64,000 nucleotides of DNA. It comes from an uncultured Gammaproteobacteria bacterium. GTDB taxonomy: Bacteria; Patescibacteriota; Microgenomatia; Daviesbacterales; UBA10151. The notes below the pieces were generated by a model that did not search any database, was not told where the DNA came from, and saw only the letters and a list, made by a program, of their open reading frames with translations. The first letter of the stretch is position 1, and the number at the start of each line of letters is the position of its first letter. The stretch is taken from NCBI GenBank assembly GCA_964649615.1, contig CAZYPW010000008.1:574-64573 (forward strand), read 5' to 3'. The translations under genes were made by a program, and so were the position numbers. Below, piece after piece: positions 1-63,246 of this stretch.

Positions 1-1673
1 GGCCCATCCAAAATAACCCTGGAGTCGACCATTGATGAAACATTGAAAGCAATTCTGCAGGGAATATTAGCTTTAATTAAACCAGTAATCACATCAACAG
101 AAGGCCTCTGGGTAGCCACCACCAAATGAATGCCTGTAGCCCTGGCAAGTTGGGCAATTCTAGTGATAGCATCCTCAATCTCAACCGGAGCAAACATCAT
201 CAAATCTGCCAGTTCATCCACAATAATCACAATATAAGGCAGGGCCTGAAAACCTGACATTTCATTATATCCACTGATATTTCTGACTCCCACAGATTGG
301 AATAACTTATATCTTCTTTCCATCTCAGCCATGGCCCACTTTAGGGCAGATAAAATCTTTTCTGGTTCAGTAATCACTGGAGTTAATAAATGAGGAATGC
401 CGTTGTAATTTGTTAACTCCACCCTTTTGGGATCAATCAAGATCAATTTTAATTCATCTGGTGAATTCCTAAACAGCAGTGAACCAATGACTGCATTAAG
501 CATGACTGATTTTCCACTCCCCGTGGTTCCCGCAATTAAACAGTGGGGCATCTTATCTATATCCACAATCAAAGGCTTGGAGGCAGTATCTCGCCCCAAT
601 GTAACAGCCAGTTTAGATTTATGCTTACTCATCTCTTCTGATTCTAAAATACCTTTAAGCCCTACTACTTCCAAAGACCTATTAGGCACTTCAATTCCCA
701 CCAGTGATTTGCCTGGAATTGGAGCCTCAATCCTGACAGTTCCAGTAGGGGTGGCTAGCGCCAGGGCAATATCATGCTGCAAATTAGCAATTTTAGAAAT
801 TTTAGTGCCTGCAGCAATTTCTAAGGCATATTGGGTTACAGCTGGACCGCCATTTACCTCAGCCACTCTGGCTTGTATGCCAAAAGAATCTAGGGTTTTT
901 TCAATCACATTGGCATTTTTCTTAACATCTCCCCGCTCTGCTGCAGAACCAACTTTATCAGATAATAATCCTAAGTTGGGATATTTCCAAACTTTAGTTT
1001 GGCCAGCCACATTTTGCACTAGCGTATCAGCAATAATAGTTTCCTTAGGTGCAACTGGGCTGGATTTGACCACAGCTTTTTCTTCCATTCCTGAAACTTT
1101 GATTTTGATGGGGGCATGTTTTATTTCAAAGGAGTCTCTTCTTTTAAATGAAGAAAACAGGGGAGAGAAGATTTGATTTTTTAAAAAATTAAAGAAAAAA
1201 CCAAAAATGGCAAAAATTTGAGAAAGTGAAGCATTAAATAAAACAACCAGTCCTACTAAAAAAACCATTACTAAGACAGCCATTGCCCCAATAGGAGTTA
1301 AAAATAAGGCCAGTTGCTCCCAAAGAGTTTGTCCTATGCTGCCTGCTTTCTCAAAAGAAACAGCAGCTGTGATACCCACAAGGGCTAAAATAATTAAAAT
1401 AAAACCTAGTAACACATTAGTTTGGGCTAGTCTCCATCTAAATCTTGATAAGACTAAGCCTGATAAAGCAAATAAAACAGGGGTAAAAAGATAAGCCCAA
1501 CCCATTAAAGAATAGGTAAATTCTTTCCAAAAAGATAAAACTTGAGAATTTGTGGCTAAAGAGACAGCAGAAATAATTGCCAAAATAAAGGAGACCAGTG
1601 AGCCAACAGCAATAATGGTTCTTTGTTTTAATTTCAACCTGGGGAGCTTATAAATAGATCTTCTGCGGGACAT
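1..1673 (-). CDS. ftsK: FtsK/SpoIIIE DNA translocase, 3'-partial (C-terminus lies beyond the window start)
   Basis: The minus-strand translation starts at 1673. It shows about four N-terminal TM helices, then a motor domain with the Walker A motif LIAGTTGSGKS (around 500-540) and IVDELADLM-like downstream motifs. It is absent from the ORF track because the reading frame runs off the window edge. Confidence 0.75.
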   Translation of the reverse strand, partial: MSRRRSIYKLPRLKLKQRTIIAVGSLVSFILAIISAVSLATNSQVLSFWKEFTYSLMGWAYLFTPVLFALSGLVLSRFRWRLAQTNVLLGFILIILALVGITAAVSFEKAGSIGQTLWEQLALFLTPIGAMAVLVMVFLVGLVVLFNASLSQIFAIFGFFFNFLKNQIFSPLFSSFKRRDSFEIKHAPIKIKVSGMEEKAVVKSSPVAPKETIIADTLVQNVAGQTKVWKYPNLGLLSDKVGSAAERGDVKKNANVIEKTLDSFGIQARVAEVNGGPAVTQYALEIAAGTKISKIANLQHDIALALATPTGTVRIEAPIPGKSLVGIEVPNRSLEVVGLKGILESEEMSKHKSKLAVTLGRDTASKPLIVDIDKMPHCLIAGTTGSGKSVMLNAVIGSLLFRNSPDELKLILIDPKRVELTNYNGIPHLLTPVITEPEKILSALKWAMAEMERRYKLFQSVGVRNISGYNEMSGFQALPYIVIIVDELADLMMFAPVEIEDAITRIAQLARATGIHLVVATQRPSVDVITGLIKANIPCRIAFNVSSMVDSRVILDG

Positions 1674-1704
1674 ATTAAATATTATACCATAAAACTATGG
1701 GTCA

Positions 1705-3396
1705 TTATGACTCAACAATGATCGGTAATACTAGCGGCCTCCTTTCTGTAGTTTGATAAAAAAATTTCTCTAAACAATCCTCTATTAGTTTTCTTAAAAA
1801 TCTCCAGTCTGTAATTTTGTGGGCATGTTTGTCTAAAGTTTCCTTTAAAATGGTTTTTGCTTCATCTAGTATCTCTCCTGCTGTCTCTTCATAAACAAAC
1901 CCCCTGGAAATAATATCAGGCTCTGCTGTTAATTTGCCAGTGTGGGGATCAATTTCTAAAACAGCAATCACAATCCCTTCCTCATTCATCTTCTGCCTAT
2001 CCCTCAATACCACATTGCCTACATCTCCAATTCCTAATCCATCCACATAGACATTTTGCACATCCAAAATTTCCCCTAATTTAATATTTTCTTTTTCTAG
2101 TGCCATGGTCTGCCCATCTTCTACTACTAAGACATGACTGCGCTGATATCCCATATCCTGGGACATCTTGGAAAAAACTCTCATATGTTTAAAAGTACCG
2201 CCTATGGGCAATAAATACTTTGGTTTAATCAAATTGATCATCAGCCTTAACTCCTCTTTGGCTGCGTGCCCAGAGACATGCAAATCTGAGGTAACAGCTG
2301 AATAATAAACATTTACCCCCAGCCTGGTTAAAGAATCAATTAAAGCATTTTGGGCAGATTCAGTGGAGGGAATAGGATCTGCTGAAAATAAGACTGCATC
2401 TCCTTCTTTTAATTTAATCTGTTTATGCTCCTCATTAGCTGCCCGGGATAGGGCAGAACCAGATTGGCCCTGGGATCCAGCAATAAGCACTAAGATTTTT
2501 TTAGGGGAATGACCTGCTATGGCCTCTGGAGTAATTACCAGCTGAGAGGGTATTCTCAAATACCCTAAATCCCGGGATATTTGAAAATTACTTTCAAAAG
2601 AACGCCCTGCTACTGCAATCTTCCTGCCAGTTTTTAAAGCCACATTGACAGCTTGCTGCATTCTGGAAACATTAGATGAAGTCATAGTGATTAACAGTTT
2701 GCCTTCAGTTTCCAAAGAGGCTTTTTCAAAAGTATCCTCAATAGATTTTTCTGATTTATTAAAGCCTTCCTTTTCTACTCTTAAGCAATCTAGCAGCAGT
2801 AAATCTACCCCTTCTTTGCCTAATCTGGCTACCTCTCCCACATCTGTCACCTGGCCTGAAACTGGAGTCCAATCAATCTTAAAATCAGCTTGATGAATAA
2901 CTAATCCTGCTGGAGTCTTAAGCACAATTCCGGTTGAATCAGGCACAGAATGGGAAACCTGGTAAAAAGAAACTTGAAACGCTCCTAAAGTAAGTTTTTG
3001 GTCTATTTTTGTTTCCATGATTTTATCTTTAGGTAAGTTGTGTTCGCTAAATTTATTTTTAATAAAAGCACAGGTTAATTTTTGGCTATAGATAGGAACC
3101 TGCAAAGTCGGCCAGATATAGGGAAGGCCCCCAATATGGTCATCATGGCCGTGAGTAATCAAGATTCCCCTAATTTTGTTTATTTTATCTTTTAGATAAG
3201 TAATGTCCGGGATCACCAAATCTACTCCTGGCGTGCCTTCATCTGGAAAACCTACTCCACAATCCACAATCACTATGTCCGAACCATACTCATAAACATA
3301 CATGTTTTTGGTTACATCACCCACCCCTCCTAAAGGAATTATTTTTAAACTCATGTCTTTATCTGATAAAAATTGTTTAGGTTTAAACATTTTCAT
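1705..3396 (-). CDS. rnj: Ribonuclease J (metallo-beta-lactamase/beta-CASP RNase)
   Basis: The HGHDDHIGG motif and overall beta-lactamase/beta-CASP architecture support the call. The track ORF begins at a TTG at 3414. A more likely start is the ATG at 3396 (MKMFKPK) or at 3354 (MSLKIIPLGG, the typical RNase J N-terminus). Confidence 0.85.
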   Translation of the reverse strand: MKMFKPKQFLSDKDMSLKIIPLGGVGDVTKNMYVYEYGSDIVIVDCGVGFPDEGTPGVDLVIPDITYLKDKINKIRGILITHGHDDHIGGLPYIWPTLQVPIYSQKLTCAFIKNKFSEHNLPKDKIMETKIDQKLTLGAFQVSFYQVSHSVPDSTGIVLKTPAGLVIHQADFKIDWTPVSGQVTDVGEVARLGKEGVDLLLLDCLRVEKEGFNKSEKSIEDTFEKASLETEGKLLITMTSSNVSRMQQAVNVALKTGRKIAVAGRSFESNFQISRDLGYLRIPSQLVITPEAIAGHSPKKILVLIAGSQGQSGSALSRAANEEHKQIKLKEGDAVLFSADPIPSTESAQNALIDSLTRLGVNVYYSAVTSDLHVSGHAAKEELRLMINLIKPKYLLPIGGTFKHMRVFSKMSQDMGYQRSHVLVVEDGQTMALEKENIKLGEILDVQNVYVDGLGIGDVGNVVLRDRQKMNEEGIVIAVLEIDPHTGKLTAEPDIISRGFVYEETAGEILDEAKTILKETLDKHAHKITDWRFLRKLIEDCLEKFFYQTTERRPLVLPIIVES

Positions 3397-3420
3397 AATA
3401 ATCTCAAAACTCAAATGTCA

Positions 3421-3500
3421 AAAGTCAAAACTACAATTAAAAACTTAAAAGTTTTAAGATTTAAGTTTCAGATTTGAGCTTTGAGTTTTGCGGTTTGAGT
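3421..3500. repeat. Imperfect long palindrome built from two inverted 7-nt-periodic arrays (ctcaaaa/gtcaaaa ... ttttaag/atttaag/tttcaga/tttgagc/tttgagt/tttgcgg/tttgagt)
   Basis: Read directly from the sequence between the Lon-like gene end and the rnj start. It is centred on aaaacttaaaagtttt. It belongs to the same heptamer family seen at 57814-57862. Confidence 0.5.
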
Positions 3501-4520
3501 TTATCCAGATAAGTATTCTCCCAAATTAGTAATTTCTATCTTAAATGGCCCTTTTTCCCCTTCCACCAACTTTCTGGCCACCTTTCTGCAAATTCCCTGC
3601 AAAGTTCTCTGCAAAGACCTAATCCCGCCGTCAAATCCTAAGGGCCTGATAATTTGCGGCCAGATGGTCTCATCTATTTTTAGCATACTTCTATCAATTC
3701 CTGCTTCATCCATCGCTTTGGGCAAAAGATAATTTTTGCCTATCACTACCTTTTCCTCATCAGAGTATGAAGGCATTTGAATAGGCTCCAACCGATCCAT
3801 CACAGCCGTGGCTATATTGGTAGTATTATTGGCTGTGGCAATGAATAATACCTGTGATAGATCATAAGGGAAATCTAAATAATGGTCAACAAAAGAATGA
3901 TTCTGGGCAGGATCCAAAAGTTCAACTAAGACTCCCATAATATCTACTCTATATTCTTGGGCCACTCTATCAATTTCATCAAGTAAAATAACTGGATTGG
4001 AAACTTTGGCAGATTGGAGAGCCTTGATAATTAGTCCTACTTCTACATCAGGCCTGGATCTTGACTGGCCTCGCAAAGTAGCTGGATCTCCCAATCCTCC
4101 AAAAGGAATTCTCACAATAGGCCTACCAAGACTTTCAGCAATAGAATAAGCAATAGAGGTTTTACCAGTACCCACCAAACCAATAAAAGCCAGTATGGGA
4201 GCATGAAAAACAGTGGCATTTTTTTGTTTATGCAAGGTTAAAACAGATAAATATTCTAAAATTCTATCTTTGACTGATTGCAAACCAAAGTGTTCTTTAT
4301 CCAAAATTTGTTTGGCCCTGTTAATATCTAAAATATCCTGGGCATATTTGCCAAAAGGGAGCGATAACACAAAATTAGCATAAGAAACTAGCCTTTCAAA
4401 TTCTATGCCAGTTCCTGGAAATTTTAATAAGTTAAGTAATTTTTCTTCTATCTCACCGGATAAATTAGCTTGGGAAATTTTTACTTTTAATTCTTCAACT
4501 GTTGTTTGGGCAGAATCCAT
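3501..4520 (-). CDS. Lon-like AAA+ ATPase lacking the C-terminal protease domain
   Basis: The ORF aligns to the LonA substrate-recognition and ATPase region. It has Walker A GLVGTGKTS, Walker B ILLDEIDRV and a sensor region ending ...GIRSLQRTLQGICRKV. It stops where the Lon protease domain would begin, with 86 nt of non-coding palindrome following. Confidence 0.6.
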   Translation of the reverse strand: MDSAQTTVEELKVKISQANLSGEIEEKLLNLLKFPGTGIEFERLVSYANFVLSLPFGKYAQDILDINRAKQILDKEHFGLQSVKDRILEYLSVLTLHKQKNATVFHAPILAFIGLVGTGKTSIAYSIAESLGRPIVRIPFGGLGDPATLRGQSRSRPDVEVGLIIKALQSAKVSNPVILLDEIDRVAQEYRVDIMGVLVELLDPAQNHSFVDHYLDFPYDLSQVLFIATANNTTNIATAVMDRLEPIQMPSYSDEEKVVIGKNYLLPKAMDEAGIDRSMLKIDETIWPQIIRPLGFDGGIRSLQRTLQGICRKVARKLVEGEKGPFKIEITNLGEYLSG

Positions 4521-4539
4521 ACTTTAGGATATTTTATCA

Positions 4540-6942
4540 CTAACGGTTATATCCGCCACCGCCTCTTCCTCCACCACGATTCCCGCCTTCGCTAAAACTA
4601 CGACGGGCAGGCCTATCAAATCCACCAGACCTTCCGCCAAATCCTCCACTGCTTCTTCTCTCTCCTCCAAAACCACTCCTTGAGCTAGTTCTTCCTCCAC
4701 TTCTTTGGAATCCACCACCAAACCGTGGCCTGGATGAATCTCCAAAAGAAGAACGGGGCCTGAAGCCACCGCTGGAACGGAACCTGTCCGCTTCGCCAGC
4801 CTCGCGTCTAGGCGGGCCAGAGCGAAAACGAGGCGAGCCTTCTGATTGCGGCTTCATATCTGATCCAAAAAGCATAGACAAACCAACTTTTCCATCTGGA
4901 GAAACATCTGTAACTCTAACTTTCACAATTTGGCCTTCAGATACAACATCCTCTGGTTTTTCAACATGACCAGGAGCCATTTGAGAAATATGTACTAATC
5001 CATCTTTTCCAGGAGTAATTTCCACAAATGCTCCAAAAGCAGCTAGTCTCACCACTTTACCCTCAAACTCATCCCCAATATTAACTTTTTTAAACATAGC
5101 TTCAATCTCTACCATGGCATTTTTGACACTATCCTGACCAACTGCTGAAATCGTCACAGTTCCGTCATCCTCAATATCAATTTGAGCTCCGGTTTTGGCA
5201 ATTAACCCATTAATTGTTTTTCCACCAGTCCCAATCAAAAGTCCAATTTCTGATGGATCAATCTTCATTGTTTCAATTCTTGGAGCATACGGAGACATTG
5301 GTCCAACAGCAGGAATAACCTTATTCATATCTTCCAGGATTGCCAATCTGGCTGCTTTACCTTGTTTTAATGCCTCTTCAATAATCTCAAAAGATAACCC
5401 TTCCAGTTTGGTATCCATTTGGATAGCCGTAATTCCGTTTTTAGTGCCGGCAATCTTAAAATCCATTTCCCCATAAAAATCTTCCACAGCTCTCATGTCT
5501 GTAATAACCTGGAATTTTTTGTCATTGGAGAAAAGCCCCATGGCAATTCCGGCCACCGGTGTAATTAAAGGCACACCGGCATTCAAAAGTGCCAGTGAGG
5601 TAGCACAGACATCAGCCTGGGAAGTGGAAGCGTTGGCAGCTAAAACCTCAGAAACAACTCTGATGGCATAAGGAAAAGTATCCTCTGAAGGGATTACCGG
5701 CAGGATAGCTTTTTCTGCTAAACCTCCGTGTCCCACGTCACGCCTGTTAGGAGAACCTATTCTTTTGACCTCACCGACCGAAAAAGGATTAATGCTCATA
5801 TTGTAATAATGCATAAATCTCTTTTTCCTCTCTCCTTCCATACCGTCCAGAGTTTGCTCTAAAGATGGGGCACCCAGGGTAGCTACAGCTAAGACTTGAG
5901 TGTCACCTCTTTTAAACAAAGCGCTGCCGTGTGTTCTGGGCAGAAGCCCCACTTCCATGCTTAAAGGCCTAATTTCTTCCATGGCCCTGCCGTCTACTCT
6001 TTTTTGCTTTTCCAAAACTGTTTCGTGAACTATCTCCTTGGCCACTTTATCAAATATTCCGGAAATTATTTGGGGAGTTAGTTTGTCAGCATATTGAACT
6101 GCCAATTGTTTTTTGATTAAGTCCCCGGTTGCCTCATGCCATGGATGATCATTGTCAAACAAAGCTGCTTCAATCCTGTCTTTGGTAAGTTTGGTGACCT
6201 CTGTTAATAATGCTTCTTCCAAAGCCTCATCAATATGTGATATTTCCATCTTTACTTTGCCTGCTTCTTTGGTAAATTCTTCTATTAAAGCAATTATTTC
6301 TTGAGACTGTTTATGTGCTTCTTTGATACCGTCAAATACAATTTTGTCATCAACCTGCTTGGCTCCTGTTTCTATCATGACTACTTTCTCGCTACCAGAT
6401 GCCACCAACAGCTCCATATTTAAAGATTCGTATTGATCCATAGTCGGATTAATAATTAAAGTTCCGTCTTTTTCACCAACTCTGACTCCGGCAATAGGCC
6501 CATTCCAGGGAATAGATGAGATGGAAAGTGCAGCTGATGCGCCAATTAAACCCAAAATGTCCGGGTCATTGCTCTGGTCAAAAGATAACACACTCAAAAT
6601 TACCTGAACTTCATTCATCTTAAATTCTTTGGGGAAGAGTGGCCTGATTGATCTATCTATTAGCCTAGCTGTTAAAATAGATTCATCTGTAGGCCTGGCT
6701 TCTCTTTTAATAAATTTAGACGAGGAGATTTTGCCTCCGGCGTAATGTTTTTCAACATACTCAACAGACAAAGGAAAGTATCCTATATCTTCTTTTAAGG
6801 ATTGAGTCGCCACAGTTGCCAAAACAACTGTTTCACCCCAAGTTAGAAGAACAGATGCATCAGCCTGTTGGGCAAGACGCCCAGTTTCCAGTACTAATTT
6901 TCTACCATTTAAATCTATTTCTTTTTTTACTATTTTGTTCAT
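4540..6942 (-). CDS. pnp: Polynucleotide phosphorylase with a roughly 100-aa Arg/Gly/Ser-rich (RGG-like) C-terminal extension
   Basis: Two RNase PH domains, a KH domain (GKTINGLIAKTGAQIDIEDDG) and an S1 domain are present. The tail reads RFRSGPPRREAGE...GGRGGGGYNR. rpsO lies upstream, the classic rpsO-pnp arrangement. Confidence 0.9.
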   Translation of the reverse strand: MNKIVKKEIDLNGRKLVLETGRLAQQADASVLLTWGETVVLATVATQSLKEDIGYFPLSVEYVEKHYAGGKISSSKFIKREARPTDESILTARLIDRSIRPLFPKEFKMNEVQVILSVLSFDQSNDPDILGLIGASAALSISSIPWNGPIAGVRVGEKDGTLIINPTMDQYESLNMELLVASGSEKVVMIETGAKQVDDKIVFDGIKEAHKQSQEIIALIEEFTKEAGKVKMEISHIDEALEEALLTEVTKLTKDRIEAALFDNDHPWHEATGDLIKKQLAVQYADKLTPQIISGIFDKVAKEIVHETVLEKQKRVDGRAMEEIRPLSMEVGLLPRTHGSALFKRGDTQVLAVATLGAPSLEQTLDGMEGERKKRFMHYYNMSINPFSVGEVKRIGSPNRRDVGHGGLAEKAILPVIPSEDTFPYAIRVVSEVLAANASTSQADVCATSLALLNAGVPLITPVAGIAMGLFSNDKKFQVITDMRAVEDFYGEMDFKIAGTKNGITAIQMDTKLEGLSFEIIEEALKQGKAARLAILEDMNKVIPAVGPMSPYAPRIETMKIDPSEIGLLIGTGGKTINGLIAKTGAQIDIEDDGTVTISAVGQDSVKNAMVEIEAMFKKVNIGDEFEGKVVRLAAFGAFVEITPGKDGLVHISQMAPGHVEKPEDVVSEGQIVKVRVTDVSPDGKVGLSMLFGSDMKPQSEGSPRFRSGPPRREAGEADRFRSSGGFRPRSSFGDSSRPRFGGGFQRSGGRTSSRSGFGGERRSSGGFGGRSGGFDRPARRSFSEGGNRGGGRGGGGYNR

Positions 6943-7109
6943 AATATTTTGTCATTCCGCACTTAATGCGGAATCTATACAAATATTGTTTTTGGAATTT
7001 GGAAACTGTAGAAAAGGTAATTAGCTTTTTGCTAACTAACTCTTTGCAATCCCCAAACTCCTGATAATTATTTATGAATCCCTGATCAAGCCAGGGATGA
7101 CACTACGTG
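6943..7109 (-). promoter_or_regulatory. rpsO-pnp intergenic leader with three hairpins
   Basis: Seen in sequence: atccctg-N7-cagggat, then gacac-tac-gtgtc just after the rpsO stop; and attccgca-cttaa-tgcggaat just before the pnp start. This resembles the processed/attenuating pnp leader of other bacteria. Confidence 0.4.
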
Positions 7110-7379
7110 TCACTTTGATAATCCTAACTTATCTATCACTATTGTATATCTTTCGTTATCTTTTTTAAACAAATACTGCAGCAGTCTTCTTCTTTTGTTC
7201 ACCATAGATAAAAGTCCGCGCCTTGAATGAACATCATGAGTGTGCTCTTTTAAGTGCGCAGTTAAATTTTTAACCTGCTCAGTCAGAAGTGCAACCTGGA
7301 CTTCAGGAGAACCTGTATCGCCAGACTTGGTAGCAAATTCCTTAATGATTTTCTGCTTTATCTTTGGGTCTAATGGCAT
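7110..7379 (-). CDS. rpsO: 30S ribosomal protein S15
   Basis: The 89-aa product has the S15 signature ...[39 protein letters not shown]... and sits immediately upstream of pnp. Confidence 0.9.
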
Positions 7380-7421
7380 CTAAACCTTTCTTGGGAAAAC
7401 ATTGGTGCCATAAAAGTAATC

Positions 7422-7470
7422 CCTAAATTAATTTAGGGGTATTCTAACAGAAATAAACAAAATATGCAAG
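7422..7470 (-). promoter_or_regulatory. Putative rpsO promoter plus leader palindrome
   Basis: On the minus strand a -35 TTGCAT (7465-7470) is followed by a 17-nt spacer and a -10 TAGAAT (7442-7447). An 18-bp perfect palindrome ccctaaattaatttaggg (7422-7439) overlaps the predicted TSS. An SD AAAGG precedes the ATG. Confidence 0.45.
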
Positions 7471-7480
7471 GGTGGCTTGT

Positions 7481-8326
7481 TTAAGAACGGAATTTCTTGA
7501 AGTAAAGATAAACGCCTGCTCCAAACAGCAGTGGCAGGACTACCCATATCCAATTTCTAATATCGATACCTTTTTTTGGTTGAACCTGGTCATCAGAGGT
7601 TGATACAGCTTTTACTTCTCCCTCCAATCTTTCTTCACCAATACCCACATTTCCCTGTGTATCTTCATTGGTTGTTGCTCCTAAAACTCCTGGGGCAAAT
7701 CCTGCTGCAGGAGGAGATACTCCCAAAACTGAATTTTACGGTACAAGTTTTGGGATCTTCTATTCCATCAGATGTCCAAGTAGTTCCGTCAACAGATCTA
7801 ACTACGTTTAAAGTTTGCCCATTAAGAGCTGTTCCAACATAGATATTTAAAGTAATAGGTGTGGAAAATGTCAACCCAATGTTGGGTATTCCCCACTGCA
7901 TTGCTCCATCTGCCACCACTCCTGTCCCCAAACCGGTTAAAGAGCTGGTCGAAACATCAGATGAGGTGAGGGCGCTGGCATCTAAATTTGTGCCGTCTGT
8001 TTTGGTAATAACAGTACATAAGTTTGGTTTAATACTACATTATTAATAGTGGTGGAAAATCCATCCTCATTAGTTTGCCATACAGGCGGGGCAAGAGAGA
8101 CGCTGCTTTGGTTTTCGGTGGAAGTAGTATCAATTACTGCTGACTGCGTGGCTGGCGGAGTAGTTAAATTCTGATCTACCACAGTTTCAGGAGTTGGCTC
8201 TGGTAATGGGGAAGATTCCAGTGTGGCTTCTGCTGTCTGTTCCTGTTCAGCAGACGGAGTAGCTTCCTGGGCGTAAACAGGGAAGGCTGCTGCTAAAGGG
8301 GTTAGAGAATTAAATAATAAGGACAA
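7481..8326 (-). pseudogene. Frameshift-disrupted gene for a secreted, membrane-anchored surface protein
   Basis: Three consecutive minus-strand ORFs (7982-8326, 7665-7931, 7481-7726) sit in different frames and read as one protein. It has an N-terminal signal peptide (MSLLFNSLTPLAAAFPVYAQE), a Pro/Thr-rich linker, a Thr/Gly-rich domain and a C-terminal TM helix with a KKFRS tail. The frame switches fall near homopolymer runs at about 7990-8040 and 7725-7760. Confidence 0.4.
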
Positions 8327-8411: not shown

Positions 8412-9449
8412 TTAACCCAAAGAAGAGCCTTTAAAGATTTTTGGGGTCAGCCATTCTGGTTCCACTGTTTCAGAAACAACTCCTTCAGCTGATGGCCTTT
8501 CTTCAGGAGAAGGCTGGGTGCTGTGGTCATCACCCACATCAACATATCTTGAAGCAGCTGACGGGACAACTGGAGGCACAGTAAATGAGCTATCCTGGTC
8601 TGAAGGTGTAGATTGAGGCATCAAAGCAGACCAGTCAAAATTTGGTTTACCCTGAGCGGAGTCAAAGGACCCGCCTAGACTTACGCTAGTCGAGGCTGGT
8701 TTTTTGCCTCCTACCCGTAAACAATTAGCCACAGCCATGTAAGTTTCAGCTGTCACTTTATCTCCTGTTAAATTTAAGGTGGCTGCAAAGATGCCGACCA
8801 AAAGGTTAGAAGCAGCATCAGCATCTAAACTAAACCCTAAATCAGAGATTAAATTTACTAACATCTCAGATAAGGATGAAACATTGGCATCTAAAACATT
8901 AGTTTGGCCAAAGCTGGTATTAGCAGATTGAGTATCTACATTAACAATATGTGTACCAGAAAAAGCCTGTTGATTGCCCTGATAAATATTTCCTAAAGCA
9001 TTTAAATTAACTGCACCTATTACAAAAATTAAATTAAAGCCACTGCCTTGATAATGGGACACAATCCTGGCTGGCTGGAAAGTCTGATTAGGCAAAACAT
9101 GGAAGACTAAATTTAAATTATTATTTTCTGCTGCCCAATCCAATTTTTCCAAAGCTGGAATAGTGTTATCAGAAGCAGCCACTCCTTCTAAAGTAATAGT
9201 CAGATTTCCACCATCAGTTTTAGGAAGGCTTTTTTGGACATGGTCTACTCCAAAAAGATGGCCTGAAGAAACTTTAATATCATCATCAGAAACTATAGAA
9301 ACCTGTTTGCCAAGTGATTCTAAAACTAAAAATAAAGCTAAAGCAGCTGCCATTTTATCTATATCCGCATCTTTTGGAATGGCAATTAGAATTGATTTGG
9401 CAGTTGGCAGTAAATTCTTAAGTTCCACAATTTGTGAATCGTATTTCAT
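8412..9449 (-). CDS. DHH/DHHA1-family phosphoesterase-like protein (NrnA/CnpB-like, catalytic motifs possibly degenerate) with a disordered C-terminal tail
   Basis: The N-terminal DHH-like region reads ILIAIPKDADIDKMAAALAL...VSDDD...GVDHV. Its position directly downstream of infB matches where a DHH phosphoesterase follows rbfA in actinobacteria. Confidence 0.45.
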   Translation of the reverse strand: MKYDSQIVELKNLLPTAKSILIAIPKDADIDKMAAALALFLVLESLGKQVSIVSDDDIKVSSGHLFGVDHVQKSLPKTDGGNLTITLEGVAASDNTIPALEKLDWAAENNNLNLVFHVLPNQTFQPARIVSHYQGSGFNLIFVIGAVNLNALGNIYQGNQQAFSGTHIVNVDTQSANTSFGQTNVLDANVSSLSEMLVNLISDLGFSLDADAASNLLVGIFAATLNLTGDKVTAETYMAVANCLRVGGKKPASTSVSLGGSFDSAQGKPNFDWSALMPQSTPSDQDSSFTVPPVVPSAASRYVDVGDDHSTQPSPEERPSAEGVVSETVEPEWLTPKIFKGSSLG

Positions 9450-13957: not shown

Positions 13958-14389
13958 TCAGTTTTGTTTTTCCAAAAATTCATTAATGTTTCTAACAAAC
14001 TCTCTTAAATCATTCAGCCCAATACTAGCAGACTCGGCTAAGATGTTTAAATCTACATCAAGATACATATGCACCAAAATATTTCTAAGCCCGACAGCTT
14101 TCCCTAATTTTTCTGACAGACCTTTAGTAATAATGCCTTCTTTAACTAATAAGGGAAATAAATCCCTAGCATATTCAGGCATTCCAAGATTTAAACTAGA
14201 AACAATATGTTCTGCTACATTAATAACCATCTCTACGGCAACTTGCATACGATGTTTAGTCGCATCAGTAAAGATTAGATTTTCCTCTTCGTCTAAAGCC
14301 TCCCTAGTAACATGGCTATCCTCAATTATTTTAATTTCTCCTTCCAGGTAACGCAGAATATGATCAATAGTCTTTTTGTTAATAGCCAT
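13958..14389 (-). CDS. hepT: HepT-like HEPN-domain toxin (DUF86)
   Basis: The Rx4-6H HEPN motif GLRNILVHMY is present. It overlaps the upstream MNT gene by 11 nt. Confidence 0.7.
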   Translation of the reverse strand: MAINKKTIDHILRYLEGEIKIIEDSHVTREALDEEENLIFTDATKHRMQVAVEMVINVAEHIVSSLNLGMPEYARDLFPLLVKEGIITKGLSEKLGKAVGLRNILVHMYLDVDLNILAESASIGLNDLREFVRNINEFLEKQN

Positions 14390-14801
14390 AAGTTCCCCCT
14401 CTAATTCTTTTTTTCATATAATCATAATCTATATCCCGTAGCCTTTGTGTATCATAAAACTCTCTCATAATAGCTACTTCAAACTCAATCCTCTTTGTTT
14501 CATCTTTACTGTAAATATTTTCCCCCTGGATTACATTCATTAAAAATACCGGCGATTCTTTTAAACTTATCCCTCTCACCTCTGGCTCTGCTTTAACACT
14601 TATTTTTGGAAATTCTGAATATAATCTTCCTAATCTACTATAAAGGTCAACTTTCCCGTCAAATAGCACAGCAATATCAAGATCACTTCCTTTATGGGGG
14701 TTTCCAGAGGCAAAAGAGCCATACAAATAGACTGCCACTACATCTTTTTGAGTGGCAAAGTAATCCTGAATTTTTTTAATATCAGCTTCACTTAATTTCA
14801 T
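14379..14801 (-). CDS. mntA: MntA-like minimal nucleotidyltransferase antitoxin
   Basis: The GS-x9-DxD nucleotidyltransferase motif YLYGSFASGNPHKGSDLDIAVL is present. Pairing with the HEPN protein fits a type VII HepT/MntA module. Confidence 0.7.
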   Translation of the reverse strand: MKLSEADIKKIQDYFATQKDVVAVYLYGSFASGNPHKGSDLDIAVLFDGKVDLYSRLGRLYSEFPKISVKAEPEVRGISLKESPVFLMNVIQGENIYSKDETKRIEFEVAIMREFYDTQRLRDIDYDYMKKRIRGGTYGY

Positions 14802-18518: not shown

Positions 18519-18555
18519 CTAGCAGTAAGATACCATGAGTGCTAAGTCTTGTCAA
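18519..18555 (-). promoter_or_regulatory. CIRCE element embedded in the hrcA promoter
   Basis: In minus orientation it reads TTAGCACTC-N9-TACTGCTAG. A -35 TTGACA (18550-18555) is followed by a 17-nt spacer and a -10 TATCTT (18527-18532). Confidence 0.55.
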
Positions 18556-34279: not shown

Positions 34280-35287
34280 ATGGATTTACGGCCAATTACT
34301 GACAAACAAAAATCCCAATATAACAAACTGGTTACCCATGTTATCCAGTCCTGGGAATGGGGGAAATTTCGCAAAAGTTTGGGGATACCAGTTGTAAGAT
34401 ATGGATTATACAAAAATGACAAATTATCAAAAGCATTCCAGCTAACCTTACACAAAATTCCATTCACAGACAAATTTGTAGGTTACCTGCCAAAAGGCCC
34501 GTTCCCGAATAAAGATTTGGCAGGGACTCTTGAAAAAATTGGCAAAGAATATCATTGTGCTTTTATAAAACTTGAACCGAATGTAGAGGTTACAGGTAAT
34601 AGGTTACAGGTTACAGGAAACCTCATTAAATCTCCTAAACCACTTTTTACAAAATACAACTTCGTACTAGATCTGACAAAATCCGAGGAGGAACTTTTAA
34701 AAAATATGCACCCTAAAACCAGATACAATATTAAAGTAGCTCAAAAACATGGAGTTAAAGTAGAAGAAAGAGTAGATGATGAAGCTTTCAAAATTTATTT
34801 AAAATTATATTTTGAGACAACTAAACGCCAGGGTTATCATGGCCATAATGAAAACTACCACAGAAAAGTTTGGGAAACTTTGAAAAAAGAAAATATGGCT
34901 ACCTTATTAATAGCCACCCTAAAAAGTGCGCCTCTAACTGCCTGGATGCTGCTCAAATTTAGGGATACTCTATACTATCCATACGGTGGTTCATCGCTTG
35001 CCCATAGAGAAGCTATGGCCAATAATTTAGTAGCCTGGGAGGCTATAAAATTAGGCAAAAAAATGGGCCTTAAAAAATTTGATATGTGGGGAGCATTGAG
35101 TTCTGATGCCAACCCTCAAGATCCCTGGTTCGGATTCCATAAATTCAAACAAGGTTATGGTGGAAAATTAGTTGAGTATATCGGCACATATGATTTAGTT
35201 TTCAACTGGCCAATTTACATCTTGTTTACAGCTATTGACAAATTGACTCCTTTAAAAATTGCCCTCCTGAAATTGCTAAAAAAGTAA
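34280..35287 (+). CDS. FemAB-family peptidoglycan interpeptide-bridge aminoacyltransferase
   Basis: A FemX/MurM-like GNAT-pair architecture of about 335 aa with conserved ...KTRYNIK...KRQGYHG... regions. Confidence 0.7.
   Translation: MDLRPITDKQKSQYNKLVTHVIQSWEWGKFRKSLGIPVVRYGLYKNDKLSKAFQLTLHKIPFTDKFVGYLPKGPFPNKDLAGTLEKIGKEYHCAFIKLEPNVEVTGNRLQVTGNLIKSPKPLFTKYNFVLDLTKSEEELLKNMHPKTRYNIKVAQKHGVKVEERVDDEAFKIYLKLYFETTKRQGYHGHNENYHRKVWETLKKENMATLLIATLKSAPLTAWMLLKFRDTLYYPYGGSSLAHREAMANNLVAWEAIKLGKKMGLKKFDMWGALSSDANPQDPWFGFHKFKQGYGGKLVEYIGTYDLVFNWPIYILFTAIDKLTPLKIALLKLLKK
34583..34617. repeat. Heptamer tandem array (gtagagg/ttacagg/taatagg/ttacagg/ttacagg) inside the femAB-family gene
   Basis: Seen in sequence. 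It encodes VEVTGNRLQVTGNL. It is the same TTRYAGG unit family as the pcrA array, in the opposite orientation. Confidence 0.7.
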
Positions 35288-35701
35288 ATCACGAGCCACC
35301 TTATAACCCTTATTCTTATAAAACTCATCAAAAGACAAAATAATACCTGCTTTATGCTGCTTTGCCAGTGCCAAAATCAAACAATCAAAGGGGGTATGGT
35401 GTTTAGAGGCTAATGCGTCAAAGTAGCTGACTGAATTCATAAAATCTTCCTGGGAAACAGCTATTACCAATAGATTAGGGTCCGTATATTGTTGTAACAA
35501 TTCATTAGTAAGCTGGGGGTTGTTGTAACGCCTTTGAATAGTTGTGGCAGCTTCAACCAAAGCAGAAACAGGAAATAATACCTTTGCTCCACTCTCAATC
35601 AACTTCTGTGCTATTTTTAGTGCATAAATGTGGTTGGAATCATTTTCCATCATCTGGGAGATTAAAAAATCAGCATCACAGACACAAACCTGATTATCCA
35701 T
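35276..35701 (-). CDS. vapC: PIN-domain toxin VapC
   Basis: PIN acidic residues lie in VCDADFLIS, ...PFDCLILALA and ILSFD. It overlaps the upstream antitoxin gene. Confidence 0.75.
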   Translation of the reverse strand: MDNQVCVCDADFLISQMMENDSNHIYALKIAQKLIESGAKVLFPVSALVEAATTIQRRYNNPQLTNELLQQYTDPNLLVIAVSQEDFMNSVSYFDALASKHHTPFDCLILALAKQHKAGIILSFDEFYKNKGYKVARDLLF

Positions 35702-36122: not shown

Positions 36123-37064
36123 ATGGATAACAAATTACAGCTACTTACTAGGAAAAAACAAAAACTAGACACTTTCAGACCATTACCGCCAGAACTGGTT
36201 AAAAATCTTGATGACTGGTTTAAGGTTGAGTTGACCTATACCTCTAATGCCATAGAAGGGAACACCCTTACGAGGGCAGAGACAGCCTTGGTAGTGGAAA
36301 AGGGTCTTACAGTTCAGGGCAAAAGTTTAACAGAACATTTAGAGGCTACTAATCATGCCGAGGCATTAGATTATGTAAAAACACTAGTTGGTAAGAATAG
36401 ACAAGACATAACTGAAAACGACATTTTTGAGATACACAAACTAATCCTAAATAAAATTGAGGCAGAAAATGCTGGAAGATATAGGACACAACATGCAAGG
36501 TTTACGCAGTCAGATGTGGTTTTACCAAACCCTGTTAAAATCCCAGACCTGATGCAAGAGTTTATGGTTTGGTTAAAGGGTCGAAACTTAGACCATATAG
36601 TTAAAATTGCTGCCGATGCCCATTATAGGTTAGTCAGTATCCATCCTTTCTCGGATGGTAATGGTAGAACTTCACGCCTCTTAATGAATTTACTTTTAAT
36701 GCAACAGGGATACCCACCAGCCATCATCCGTAAAGAAGACAGGTTAGCTTACATAAACTCTTTAGAAAAGGCTCAAAAAGGGAATGGCTTGGATGATTTC
36801 TACAACCTTGTCTATGAGGCAGTTGACCGTTCATTGGATATTTACCTTGAGGCGATTGAGCCTGAGAGGATAAGTGTGGCTGAACCAAGTCCCAAGCAAC
36901 TTTTCTATACCACAGAGGAAGTGGCAAAGTTACTTCAGGTAGACCCAGAAAGTGTCAGGCGTTATGTTAGAAGTGGAAAATTAAGGGCAGTCAGGTTAGG
37001 CGGCAAATTTATCAGAATAGACAGAGCGGACTTAAATAATTTTATAGAGGAACTTAAAAGATAA
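36123..37064 (+). CDS. fic: Fic/Doc-family AMPylase fused to a C-terminal excisionase/MerR-type HTH domain
   Basis: The Fic motif is HPFSDGNGRTSR. The C-terminal HTH reads LFYTTEEVAKLLQVDPESVRRYVRSGKLRAVRLGGKFIRI. Confidence 0.85.
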   Translation: MDNKLQLLTRKKQKLDTFRPLPPELVKNLDDWFKVELTYTSNAIEGNTLTRAETALVVEKGLTVQGKSLTEHLEATNHAEALDYVKTLVGKNRQDITENDIFEIHKLILNKIEAENAGRYRTQHARFTQSDVVLPNPVKIPDLMQEFMVWLKGRNLDHIVKIAADAHYRLVSIHPFSDGNGRTSRLLMNLLLMQQGYPPAIIRKEDRLAYINSLEKAQKGNGLDDFYNLVYEAVDRSLDIYLEAIEPERISVAEPSPKQLFYTTEEVAKLLQVDPESVRRYVRSGKLRAVRLGGKFIRIDRADLNNFIEELKR

Positions 37065-57652: not shown

Positions 57653-58513
57653 TCAAGCCCTGCTAATTTTTTGTTTGTAGAGCTTTAAAATGTTAGGTCT
57701 GATATCTAAAGGGTGGAGGTACAAAGCCCCTTCTTGTATCCGTTCCATACCTTCTGGCTTTTTCATAATTTTTAGCTGTATCCACCTTGCTATCTTTTCT
57801 AATAAGTCAAAAGTTTTGAGATTTGATTTGTAGGTTTGAGATTTGCGTTTTGAGATTTGCGTTTTTTCTCCAATCCAATTTGGTAAAAACTTAAAAGCCC
57901 AACTGTTATCAGACAAATACTTGGTATAAATTCCCTCCCTTTGCCAAAGAAGCTTCATTTGCAAAACTTCATGGGCAGTATATAGATCTTTAAACAATTG
58001 CTCCAAATGGTCTTCATCCAAAATAGTATTCAAACAAAATTTTCCCCGGGCATCTTTAAAACTCATCCCGACTTTTCTTCTTACTCCAAAAAAATCTAGA
58101 ATAAATATGACCAGCATCCGGGATAACCAAAGCCTGTTTTTATCAGTAATTAAAAACAAATCTATATCATCACGTTTTTCACTATTCTCAAGGGCTAATC
58201 CACCTGAAATTCCCACTAATTTTACCCAGGGAATAATTTTAAGAAATTGACCAAATATTTTTGCTTTTTTAAAATAAATTTCTGATTGCTTTTCTCTTCT
58301 TTTTCTTTTTAAAACCAGTTGTTTATGGTTCTTCAAAAAATAAAAGTCCCCGGAGTTACCAATTTTTCTTTTTTTAAAAAGTCTGGTTAATGCTTTTTCT
58401 ACTTGCCAGAAAGTGGCTTGTTTTCCAATCAGCCATTTATGAATTTCGTAGGCTTTCATTGGAAACAAAAAAATATTGGCATAAATTAATGTTTTTAAAA
58501 CCGCCTTTTCCAT
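57653..58513 (-). CDS. Hypothetical protein with a nucleotidyltransferase-fold signature (GISGGLA...DDIDLFLI) carrying an internal heptamer array
   Basis: The GS-x(n)-DxD pattern is present. The array at 57814-57862 (ttttgag/atttgat/ttgtagg/tttgaga/tttgcgt/tttgaga/tttgcgt) encodes a K/S/Q-rich segment. Confidence 0.35.
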   Translation of the reverse strand: MEKAVLKTLIYANIFLFPMKAYEIHKWLIGKQATFWQVEKALTRLFKKRKIGNSGDFYFLKNHKQLVLKRKRREKQSEIYFKKAKIFGQFLKIIPWVKLVGISGGLALENSEKRDDIDLFLITDKNRLWLSRMLVIFILDFFGVRRKVGMSFKDARGKFCLNTILDEDHLEQLFKDLYTAHEVLQMKLLWQREGIYTKYLSDNSWAFKFLPNWIGEKTQISKRKSQTYKSNLKTFDLLEKIARWIQLKIMKKPEGMERIQEGALYLHPLDIRPNILKLYKQKISRA

Positions 58514-62868: not shown

Positions 62869-63246
62869 TTAAATCAACTTTAATCCTTCCATCGGATAAT
62901 CTTTTTTATTATTTGTCACAAGAATTAGATTATTTTTAATAGCTGTAGCAACAATGCAAGCATCAACTAAATATAGCGCCCTCCCTTTTTTACCAAAACT
63001 CCTAATAAATTCTATGGCTAATTGAGCAATATCATTTGTCAATGGGATAATGGTTAAAGCGTCAAAAAACTTATTTATTTTTGGAATTTGGGCATCTTTC
63101 AATCCTATCTTAACTTCTATCTCAATCAAGACAGATACCGCGGGTAGTTCATCAAGTTGAATAATTTTTTCAATTAAAGCGATTGCTGATTCTCGTTTTG
63201 CCAAATAGTCAATAATGATATCAGAATTAAGTAGATAAGTTGTCAC
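62869..63246 (-). CDS. vapC: PIN-domain toxin VapC
   Basis: LNSDIIIDYL, LYLVDACIVATA and LVTNNKKDY motifs are present. Confidence 0.75.
   Translation of the reverse strand: MTTYLLNSDIIIDYLAKRESAIALIEKIIQLDELPAVSVLIEIEVKIGLKDAQIPKINKFFDALTIIPLTNDIAQLAIEFIRSFGKKGRALYLVDACIVATAIKNNLILVTNNKKDYPMEGLKLI

Follow-up and report, generated by a model that had tools for sequence, protein, structure and literature searches.

A predicted free-standing LonA-type AAA+ ATPase without a protease domain in Microgenomates bacteria

The 64-kb stretch of DNA analysed here (the window) carries on its reverse strand a 339-residue open reading frame (ORF) for a LonA-type AAA+ ATPase, located between pnp, encoding PNPase, and rnj, encoding RNase J (Table 1). 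An identical protein is deposited at NCBI as an 'AAA family ATPase' of Candidatus Daviesbacteria (GCA_016176385.1, on a 146-kb contig). The pnp and ATPase genes are probably co-transcribed and, as the original prediction stated, rnj follows the ATPase gene. The usual array at loci of this family is nusA-infB-DHH-like-rpsO-pnp-[ATPase]-[rnj]-ftsK-HTH25-alaS. A scan for promoters and terminators over positions 1500-7600 returned counts no better than those of shuffled sequence.

Table 1 Position of the ATPase gene, its sequence elements and its immediate surroundings in the window.
Feature	Coordinates	Strand	Remarks
rnj (RNase J), downstream neighbour	1705..3396	-	gap of about 104 nt; start ATG 3396 or 3390
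Imperfect palindrome of inverted TCAAAAN heptamer arrays	3398..3504	.	fills the gap between the ATPase stop and the rnj start
Protease-less, N-domain-less LonA-type AAA+ ATPase gene	3501..4520	-	ATG to TAA, 339 aa
Lon-type lid (small alpha-helical AAA+ subdomain), residues 272-323	3552..3707	-	sensor-2 R301 invariant
Sensor 1 (TANN, N231) to arginine finger (DRLE, R243)	3786..3836	-	both invariant
Walker B VILLDEID, residues 177-184	3969..3992	-	LLDEID at 179-184; D181 and E182 invariant
Pore loop 1, residues 150-162, RGQSRSRPDVEVG	4035..4073	-	Arg at the LonA Tyr position
Walker A GLVGTGKTS, residues 114-122	4155..4181	-	family signature GL[VAQ]G.GKT
Three-helix bundle, residues 1-53	4362..4520	-	C-terminal part of LonA HI(CC), E. 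coli Lon about 247-300
pnp (PNPase), upstream neighbour	4540..6942	-	gap 19 nt

The repeat-derived palindrome that had been noticed after the ORF is real, its two arms of 53 nt each (3398-3450 and 3452-3504) being 75% complementary. Folded as RNA it reaches -32 kcal/mol (z = -5.2), and the hairpin spans the ribosome-binding region of rnj. The palindrome is not found in relatives: locus L003 displays another intergenic sequence at this place and L001 has no intergenic sequence. Heptamer arrays of the TCAAAAN/GCAAATC type are present at 3398-3504 and at 57834-57867, with 7 matches against 0.57 expected by chance, and the latter array lies inside a reverse-strand ORF (57653-58513) without a family match.

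Elsewhere in the window, the reverse-strand ORF at 8412-9449 (345 aa), positioned between infB and rpsO, shows a sub-threshold DHH match (E 9e-4, 20 bits against a cut-off of 28.1), and the matching slot at loci L088 and L089 is occupied by a clear 282-aa DHH (NrnA-like) protein. The Daviesbacteria version at this slot thus seems to be a diverged DHH phosphoesterase whose C-terminus is a low-complexity tail. Upstream of hrcA-grpE-dnaK, an inverted repeat resembling CIRCE (CTAGCAGTA-N9-GAGTGCTAA, 18519-18545, 3 mismatches) is placed as expected for HrcA control; it is the sole CIRCE-like site in the window and lies far from the ATPase gene. Genes of the toxin-antitoxin type, comprising a nucleotidyltransferase/HepT-like pair and PIN-domain genes, occur at 13958-14801, 35276-35701 and 62869-63246, all on the reverse strand, and a Fic/HTH gene (36123-37064) is found amid housekeeping genes.

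The domain content of the ORF is that of a LonA-type AAA+ module, as originally predicted. Pfam identifies AAA (PF00004) at residues 111-247 (E 1e-16) and Lon_lid (PF22667) at residues 272-323 (E 2e-9), and in the 339 residues neither Lon_C (PF05362), the S16 domain with the Ser-Lys dyad, nor PF02190, the N-terminal LON substrate-binding domain, gives a match. The NCBIfam lon equivalog TIGR00763 covers the ORF at model positions 253-568 of 795 only, with 305.8 bits, below the curated cut-off of 608.05, while NF008053 reaches 224.7 bits versus a cut-off of 891. In alignments to solved structures the ORF corresponds to E. coli Lon residues 244-579, and it matches B. subtilis Lon with an E value of 2e-69. 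The partial coverage of TIGR00763, together with the extent of the E. coli Lon alignment, therefore indicates that the protein is without a protease domain. The ORF stops in the linker between lid and protease of Lon, at about Lon residue 579, which agrees with the earlier observation that it ends where the protease domain would begin. At the other end some 245 residues, comprising the entire N-terminal LON domain and the greater part of the coiled coil, are absent as well, which the original prediction did not mention.

The ATPase core of the protein is intact. Both Walker motifs originally read from the sequence are in place (Table 1), and K120 of Walker A, D181 and E182 of Walker B, N231 of sensor 1, R243 of the arginine finger and R301 of sensor 2 are invariant in three independent family alignments (A1, A2 and A3). 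Since these six residues are invariant, the protein is predicted to be an active ATPase that would hydrolyse ATP at subunit interfaces, i.e. as an oligomer. The residue pattern predicts a catalytically competent AAA+ ATPase of the Clp/Hsp100-Lon-RuvB clade. The family Walker A consensus is GL[VAQ]G.GKT, compared with GPPG.GKT in 64 of 70 LonA sequences. Pore loop 1 is altered more extensively, the RGHRRTY[IV]GAMPG of LonA being replaced in the family by RGxS[RK]xx[PA][DE][AS]EPG. The position of the pore-loop tyrosine, by which LonA contacts its substrate for translocation and which is Tyr in all 61 full-length LonA proteins scored, is occupied by Arg in the ORF and by Arg or Lys in 75 of the 81 scorable sequences from Daviesbacteria, while other Microgenomates display His (38 sequences), Arg (24), Tyr (17) or Phe (10). 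Across the family R, K, H, F, Y, S and Q are all observed at this position, and the [PA][DE][AS]EPG segment that follows it is conserved. Selection for the aromatic grip has lapsed in the family, and a new acidic motif, P-D-A-E-P-G, is being kept. The C-terminus is patterned as well: 104 of 120 members from outside Daviesbacteria terminate in the aromatic residue of N[IVM]K[EDQ][FY]LPxW-COOH, and the Daviesbacteria members carry NLGEYLSG and no terminal Trp.

A monomer model predicted by AlphaFold2 from a 100-sequence family alignment (pLDDT 88.7, pTM 0.82) displays three N-terminal helices (residues 2-17, 22-31 and 39-53), an α/β core and a helical lid, with no inserted hydrophobic segment. 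Foldseek superposes the model on the Lon AAA+ modules of human, yeast, Yersinia, Thermus, Meiothermus and E. coli with TMq values of 0.84-0.90. For the E. coli fragment EcLon(235-584) (PDB 6n2i), 337 of the 338 residues are aligned (TMq 0.88, TMt 0.89). That fragment is a stable product of limited proteolysis, and its crystal contains an ADP-bound, open hexameric spiral (PMC6722904). On the basis of the model, the Microgenomates protein would in effect be a naturally encoded version of EcLon(235-584).

No Lon protease domain is encoded nearby. A regular-expression search in all six frames of the 64-kb window found neither the Ser nor the Lys catalytic motif of the Lon protease. Profiles for Lon_C and for the Lon N-domain, built from 71 full-length LonA sequences, gave no six-frame match at E <= 0.01 in the window or in 16 family loci (17 loci including the window, about 300 kb in total). 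The same Lon_C profile recovered 11 of 12 LonA control loci with E values of 1e-85 to 1e-99, and the N-domain profile gave 1e-41 to 1e-88. Both approaches bear out the earlier statement that no frameshifted protease domain lies downstream of the ORF. Furthermore, the gene tables over about 75 kb of the contig list no Lon, ClpP, ClpX, HslUV or FtsH. With no canonical lon in this stretch, the ORF is at most a putative paralog of Lon, the term used in the original prediction.

The short form is widely conserved. Proteins of 336-386 aa with the same boundary form more than 240 clusters at 90% identity, from Daviesbacteria, Levy-, Shapiro-, Gottesman- and Roizmanbacteria and from Dojkabacteria. The best 120 clusters, from Daviesbacteria, are 75-83% identical to the ORF and measure 336-347 aa, except for two of 365 and 367 aa; a profile of the remoter members retrieved another 120 clusters of 342-386 aa from other Microgenomates, among them sequences named Shapirobacteria, Gottesmanbacteria, Roizmanbacteria and 'Microgenomates'. 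A search of representatives at 50% identity added more short forms, one of them from Dojkabacteria. Among the 80 loci listed in a scan of contigs from GTDB species genomes, at least 10 encode short forms, proteins of 341-375 aa that all end at the common boundary. The extra length of the longer members consists of low-complexity N- or C-terminal tails rich in Q, P, S and T, and the extensions of P0128, P0141, P0153 and P0164, inspected for a degenerate protease or N-domain, have no Pfam match. Identity is 36-84% inside the short-form family and 30-47% between the family and LonA. A neighbour-joining tree with 32 members of the family and 50 cores of full-length LonA groups the short forms as one clan, separate from LonA, in all 30 bootstraps. 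Some family loci (L008, L009, L010, L013 and L014) combine Microgenomates gene order and a short Lon ATPase with record titles such as 'uncultured Gammaproteobacteria' or 'uncultured Pseudomonadales'; the titles of such MAG records look like placeholder or wrong labels.

These data bear directly on the possibility of a recent truncation, raised in the original prediction, and on the related readings of a decaying lon or an artefact of assembly or gene calling. The missing protease domain and the repeat-derived palindrome right after the stop codon are all that speaks for such an origin. Against it stand the common length and stop position of over 240 clusters, drawn from independent assemblies, the strong purifying selection between the ORF and its L001 ortholog (dN 0.15, dS 1.70, dN/dS about 0.09), the invariant catalytic residues, the absence of a remnant downstream and the clan recovered in every bootstrap. 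The palindrome itself is missing at orthologous loci, where the gene may even overlap rnj. Recent truncation is thus refuted, and we regard it as next to impossible; the proposed check of relatives for the same short form finds it in several Microgenomates lineages with a common stop position. Judged from sequence, the family is very probably a conserved, ATPase-competent derivative of LonA devoid of protease and N-domain and restricted, as sampled, to Microgenomates and Dojkabacteria.

The genomic neighbourhood is partly conserved. The pnp gene is located within 4 kb upstream of the ATPase gene at 13 of 18 family loci, and rnj lies directly downstream at 8 of 17, the stop and start codons overlapping in L001 and L016. 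This adjacency to pnp and rnj persists down to about 40-50% protein identity. At the Daviesbacteria loci L001 (3398-5955) and L003 (4331-5922), pnp and the ATPase gene are separated by two or three additional genes, whose products are a Bro-N domain protein and proteins with weak similarity to PsbP; the junction therefore tolerates insertions. The slot after the ATPase gene is without rnj in L088, L089 and L004. In two Patescibacteria loci (L011, 5766-7844, and L014, 5884-7880) groES-groEL divergently adjoin the ATPase gene, with no CIRCE element evident in the intergenic regions facing groES. In L005 the gene is flanked by two M16 peptidase genes and one M23 peptidase gene, and in L090, from Dojkabacteria, the context is unrelated to that of the other family loci. 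The dominant neighbourhood, pnp and rnj, points to RNA metabolism over proteostasis and so counts against a protein remodeller, whereas the two loci beside groES-groEL count in favour of one.

Taken together, the features of the family suggest an ancient single event by which LonA would have been stripped of both its N-terminal substrate-binding domain and its C-terminal S16 protease domain. Because the trans-acting arginine finger is invariant, the resulting free-standing AAA+ ATPase most likely forms a Lon-like ring, in which ATP hydrolysis would most likely power a chaperone or remodeller that reshapes a client and leaves it undegraded. The stability of the LonA hexamer owes much to the protease and N domains, which counts against a ring. 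Pore loop 1, devoid of the gripping tyrosine and equipped with its own motif, probably engages a narrower client or partner; given this change, Lon-style threading of arbitrary polypeptides is probably absent, and the protein could even translocate no polypeptide at all. The original suggestion of a stand-alone unfoldase or adaptor thus stands in its first part, the stand-alone ATPase, and is putative in the second, the unfoldase or adaptor, where the loss of the pore-loop-1 tyrosine weakens the unfoldase. The best explanation, to which we give about an even chance, is a ring-forming, ATP-driven remodeller or chaperone with restricted clients and a re-tooled pore loop that would operate without proteolysis.

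Several other functions are conceivable for such an ATPase. The frequent presence of pnp upstream (13 of 18 loci) and rnj downstream (8 of 17), the short gap of 19 nt to pnp in the window and the basic residue (R, K or H) found at the former tyrosine position in about three quarters of members would all suit an accessory of RNA decay that works with PNPase and RNase J and remodels RNA, RNPs or the nucleases, as DEAD-box helicases do in degradosomes. Binding of DNA and RNA is known for LonA and mitochondrial Lon, and the AAA+ clade of Lon also includes a DNA motor, RuvB. An accessory of this kind is nevertheless unlikely. The nusA...alaS block is a conserved housekeeping array, so the adjacency of pnp and rnj may be historical; rnj is gone from its slot in L088, L089 and L004, other members reside beside groES-groEL (L011 and L014), peptidase genes (L005) or unrelated genes (L090), and the conserved part of the loop (D-A-E) is acidic and thus unfavourable for nucleic acid binding. 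Quite unlikely, likewise, is the more specific proposal that the Lon ATPase has been repurposed as a dedicated part of Microgenomates RNA decay, acting on RNA, on RNPs or on PNPase and RNase J through a pore loop in which the tyrosine is replaced mostly by basic residues. If true, a protease motor would have been turned into a motor of RNA metabolism in organisms of minimal genome.

Alternatively, the ATPase may be one half of a split protease and dock on a separately encoded peptidase, either of the Lon_C type or unrelated, possibly via its C-terminal tail. HslU and the ATPases of the proteasome attach to their peptidases by C-terminal tails, and the C-terminus of the family is fixed in position, with an aromatic end in 104 of the 120 non-Daviesbacteria members; in L005 the gene even lies between M16, M16 and M23 peptidase genes. 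This arrangement is nevertheless improbable, as no Lon_C is encoded within 8-10 kb at 17 loci (about 300 kb) or anywhere in the 64-kb window, the Daviesbacteria members, the ORF included, are without the terminal Trp, and, with the tyrosine lost, processive threading into a chamber is less likely. In addition, the tail aligns with the ancestral lid-protease linker of LonA and may thus simply be inherited. A modulatory subunit, assembling with a full-length Lon from another part of the genome or competing with it, would account for the retention of the ring-interface elements (arginine finger and sensor 2), but this is very unlikely given that no canonical lon is found in about 75 kb of the contig or near any family locus, and that the family diverges deeply from LonA (30-47% identity) as a separate clan. 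Comparison with anti-phage defence ATPases through PADLOC (BrxL, IetA and DolB) yielded generic AAA matches only (DolB 30 bits, IetA 22 bits), and membership of a defence island was rejected as well, the surrounding genes being housekeeping genes.

If the protein is an ATP-driven remodeller without proteolysis, it offers a natural test of the Lon motor on its own and would reveal which pore-loop features are tied to translocation and which to ATPase cycling. By definition, Lon unites an ATPase and a protease in a single polypeptide. Lon N-domains that occur alone are known, as are Lon protease domains that stand alone or are joined to a dead ATPase; neither a conserved, free-standing ATPase of the LonA type nor the presence of Lon in CPR bacteria was found described in the searchable literature. 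Databases treat the family unevenly: PGAP names its members 'AAA family ATPase', and some carry the JGI or UniProt labels 'ATP-dependent Lon protease' or 'Lon protease'. The latter labels are misleading on short-form members, and claims of Lon proteolysis in Microgenomates may therefore rest on a protein incapable of cleavage.

The closest known system is LonA itself (endopeptidase La, MEROPS S16, represented by E. coli Lon, B. subtilis LonA and human LONP1), which has in common with the ORF the three-helix bundle, the AAA+ large domain and the Lon-type lid, with 35-45% identity over about 330 residues and a model TM of 0.84-0.90. Walker A and B, sensor 1, the arginine finger, sensor 2 and the pre-sensor-1 region are kept in both. 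In contrast, the N-terminal LON domain, the coiled coil, the S16 protease domain, the pore-loop-1 Tyr and the GPPG of LonA have no counterpart in the ORF. With three defining features of LonA missing, namely the protease domain, the N domain and the pore-loop tyrosine, and with a score below the equivalog cut-off, the label Lon protease is inappropriate for the ORF. Full-length Lon proteins with additional motors also exist: P0121, P0122, P0124, P0126 and P0127 contain two or three tandem LonA-type AAA+ modules with lids before a single Lon_C, and degenerate pore loops are seen in several of the additional modules. These tandem-module proteins topped the search of representatives because scores sum over the modules.

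The product proposed for the ORF resembles ClpX, HslU and the D2 ring of ClpB, all free-standing, ring-shaped ATPases from the Clp/Hsp100-Lon-RuvB clade. These proteins keep the aromatic pore-loop residue and docking elements such as the IGF loop, the C-terminal tail or the M domain, and the models of ClpX and ClpA match the ORF only marginally (E 0.006-0.04). The nucleotide-binding domain of LonA resembles the NB2 domain of ClpB (PMC6722904). Within the Lon superfamily, LonB, LonC and LonBA are described as all retaining the protease domain (PMC9569914). LonB has a transmembrane insertion and LonC degenerate Walker motifs, whereas the ORF is without a protease domain, has intact Walker motifs and, in the model, carries no inserted hydrophobic segment. 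In LonC the protease is kept and ATPase function is lost, the ATPase and protease functions of Lon thus being separable (PMC3391209). LonC is thus the mirror image of the ORF, which keeps the ATPase and loses the protease. The nearest structural equivalent remains the E. coli fragment in 6N2I (residues 235-584), whose boundaries are near-identical to those of the ORF; 6N2I was obtained in the laboratory from a protease and keeps the canonical pore loop, whereas the ORF encodes a natural, conserved gene product in which that loop has been remodelled.
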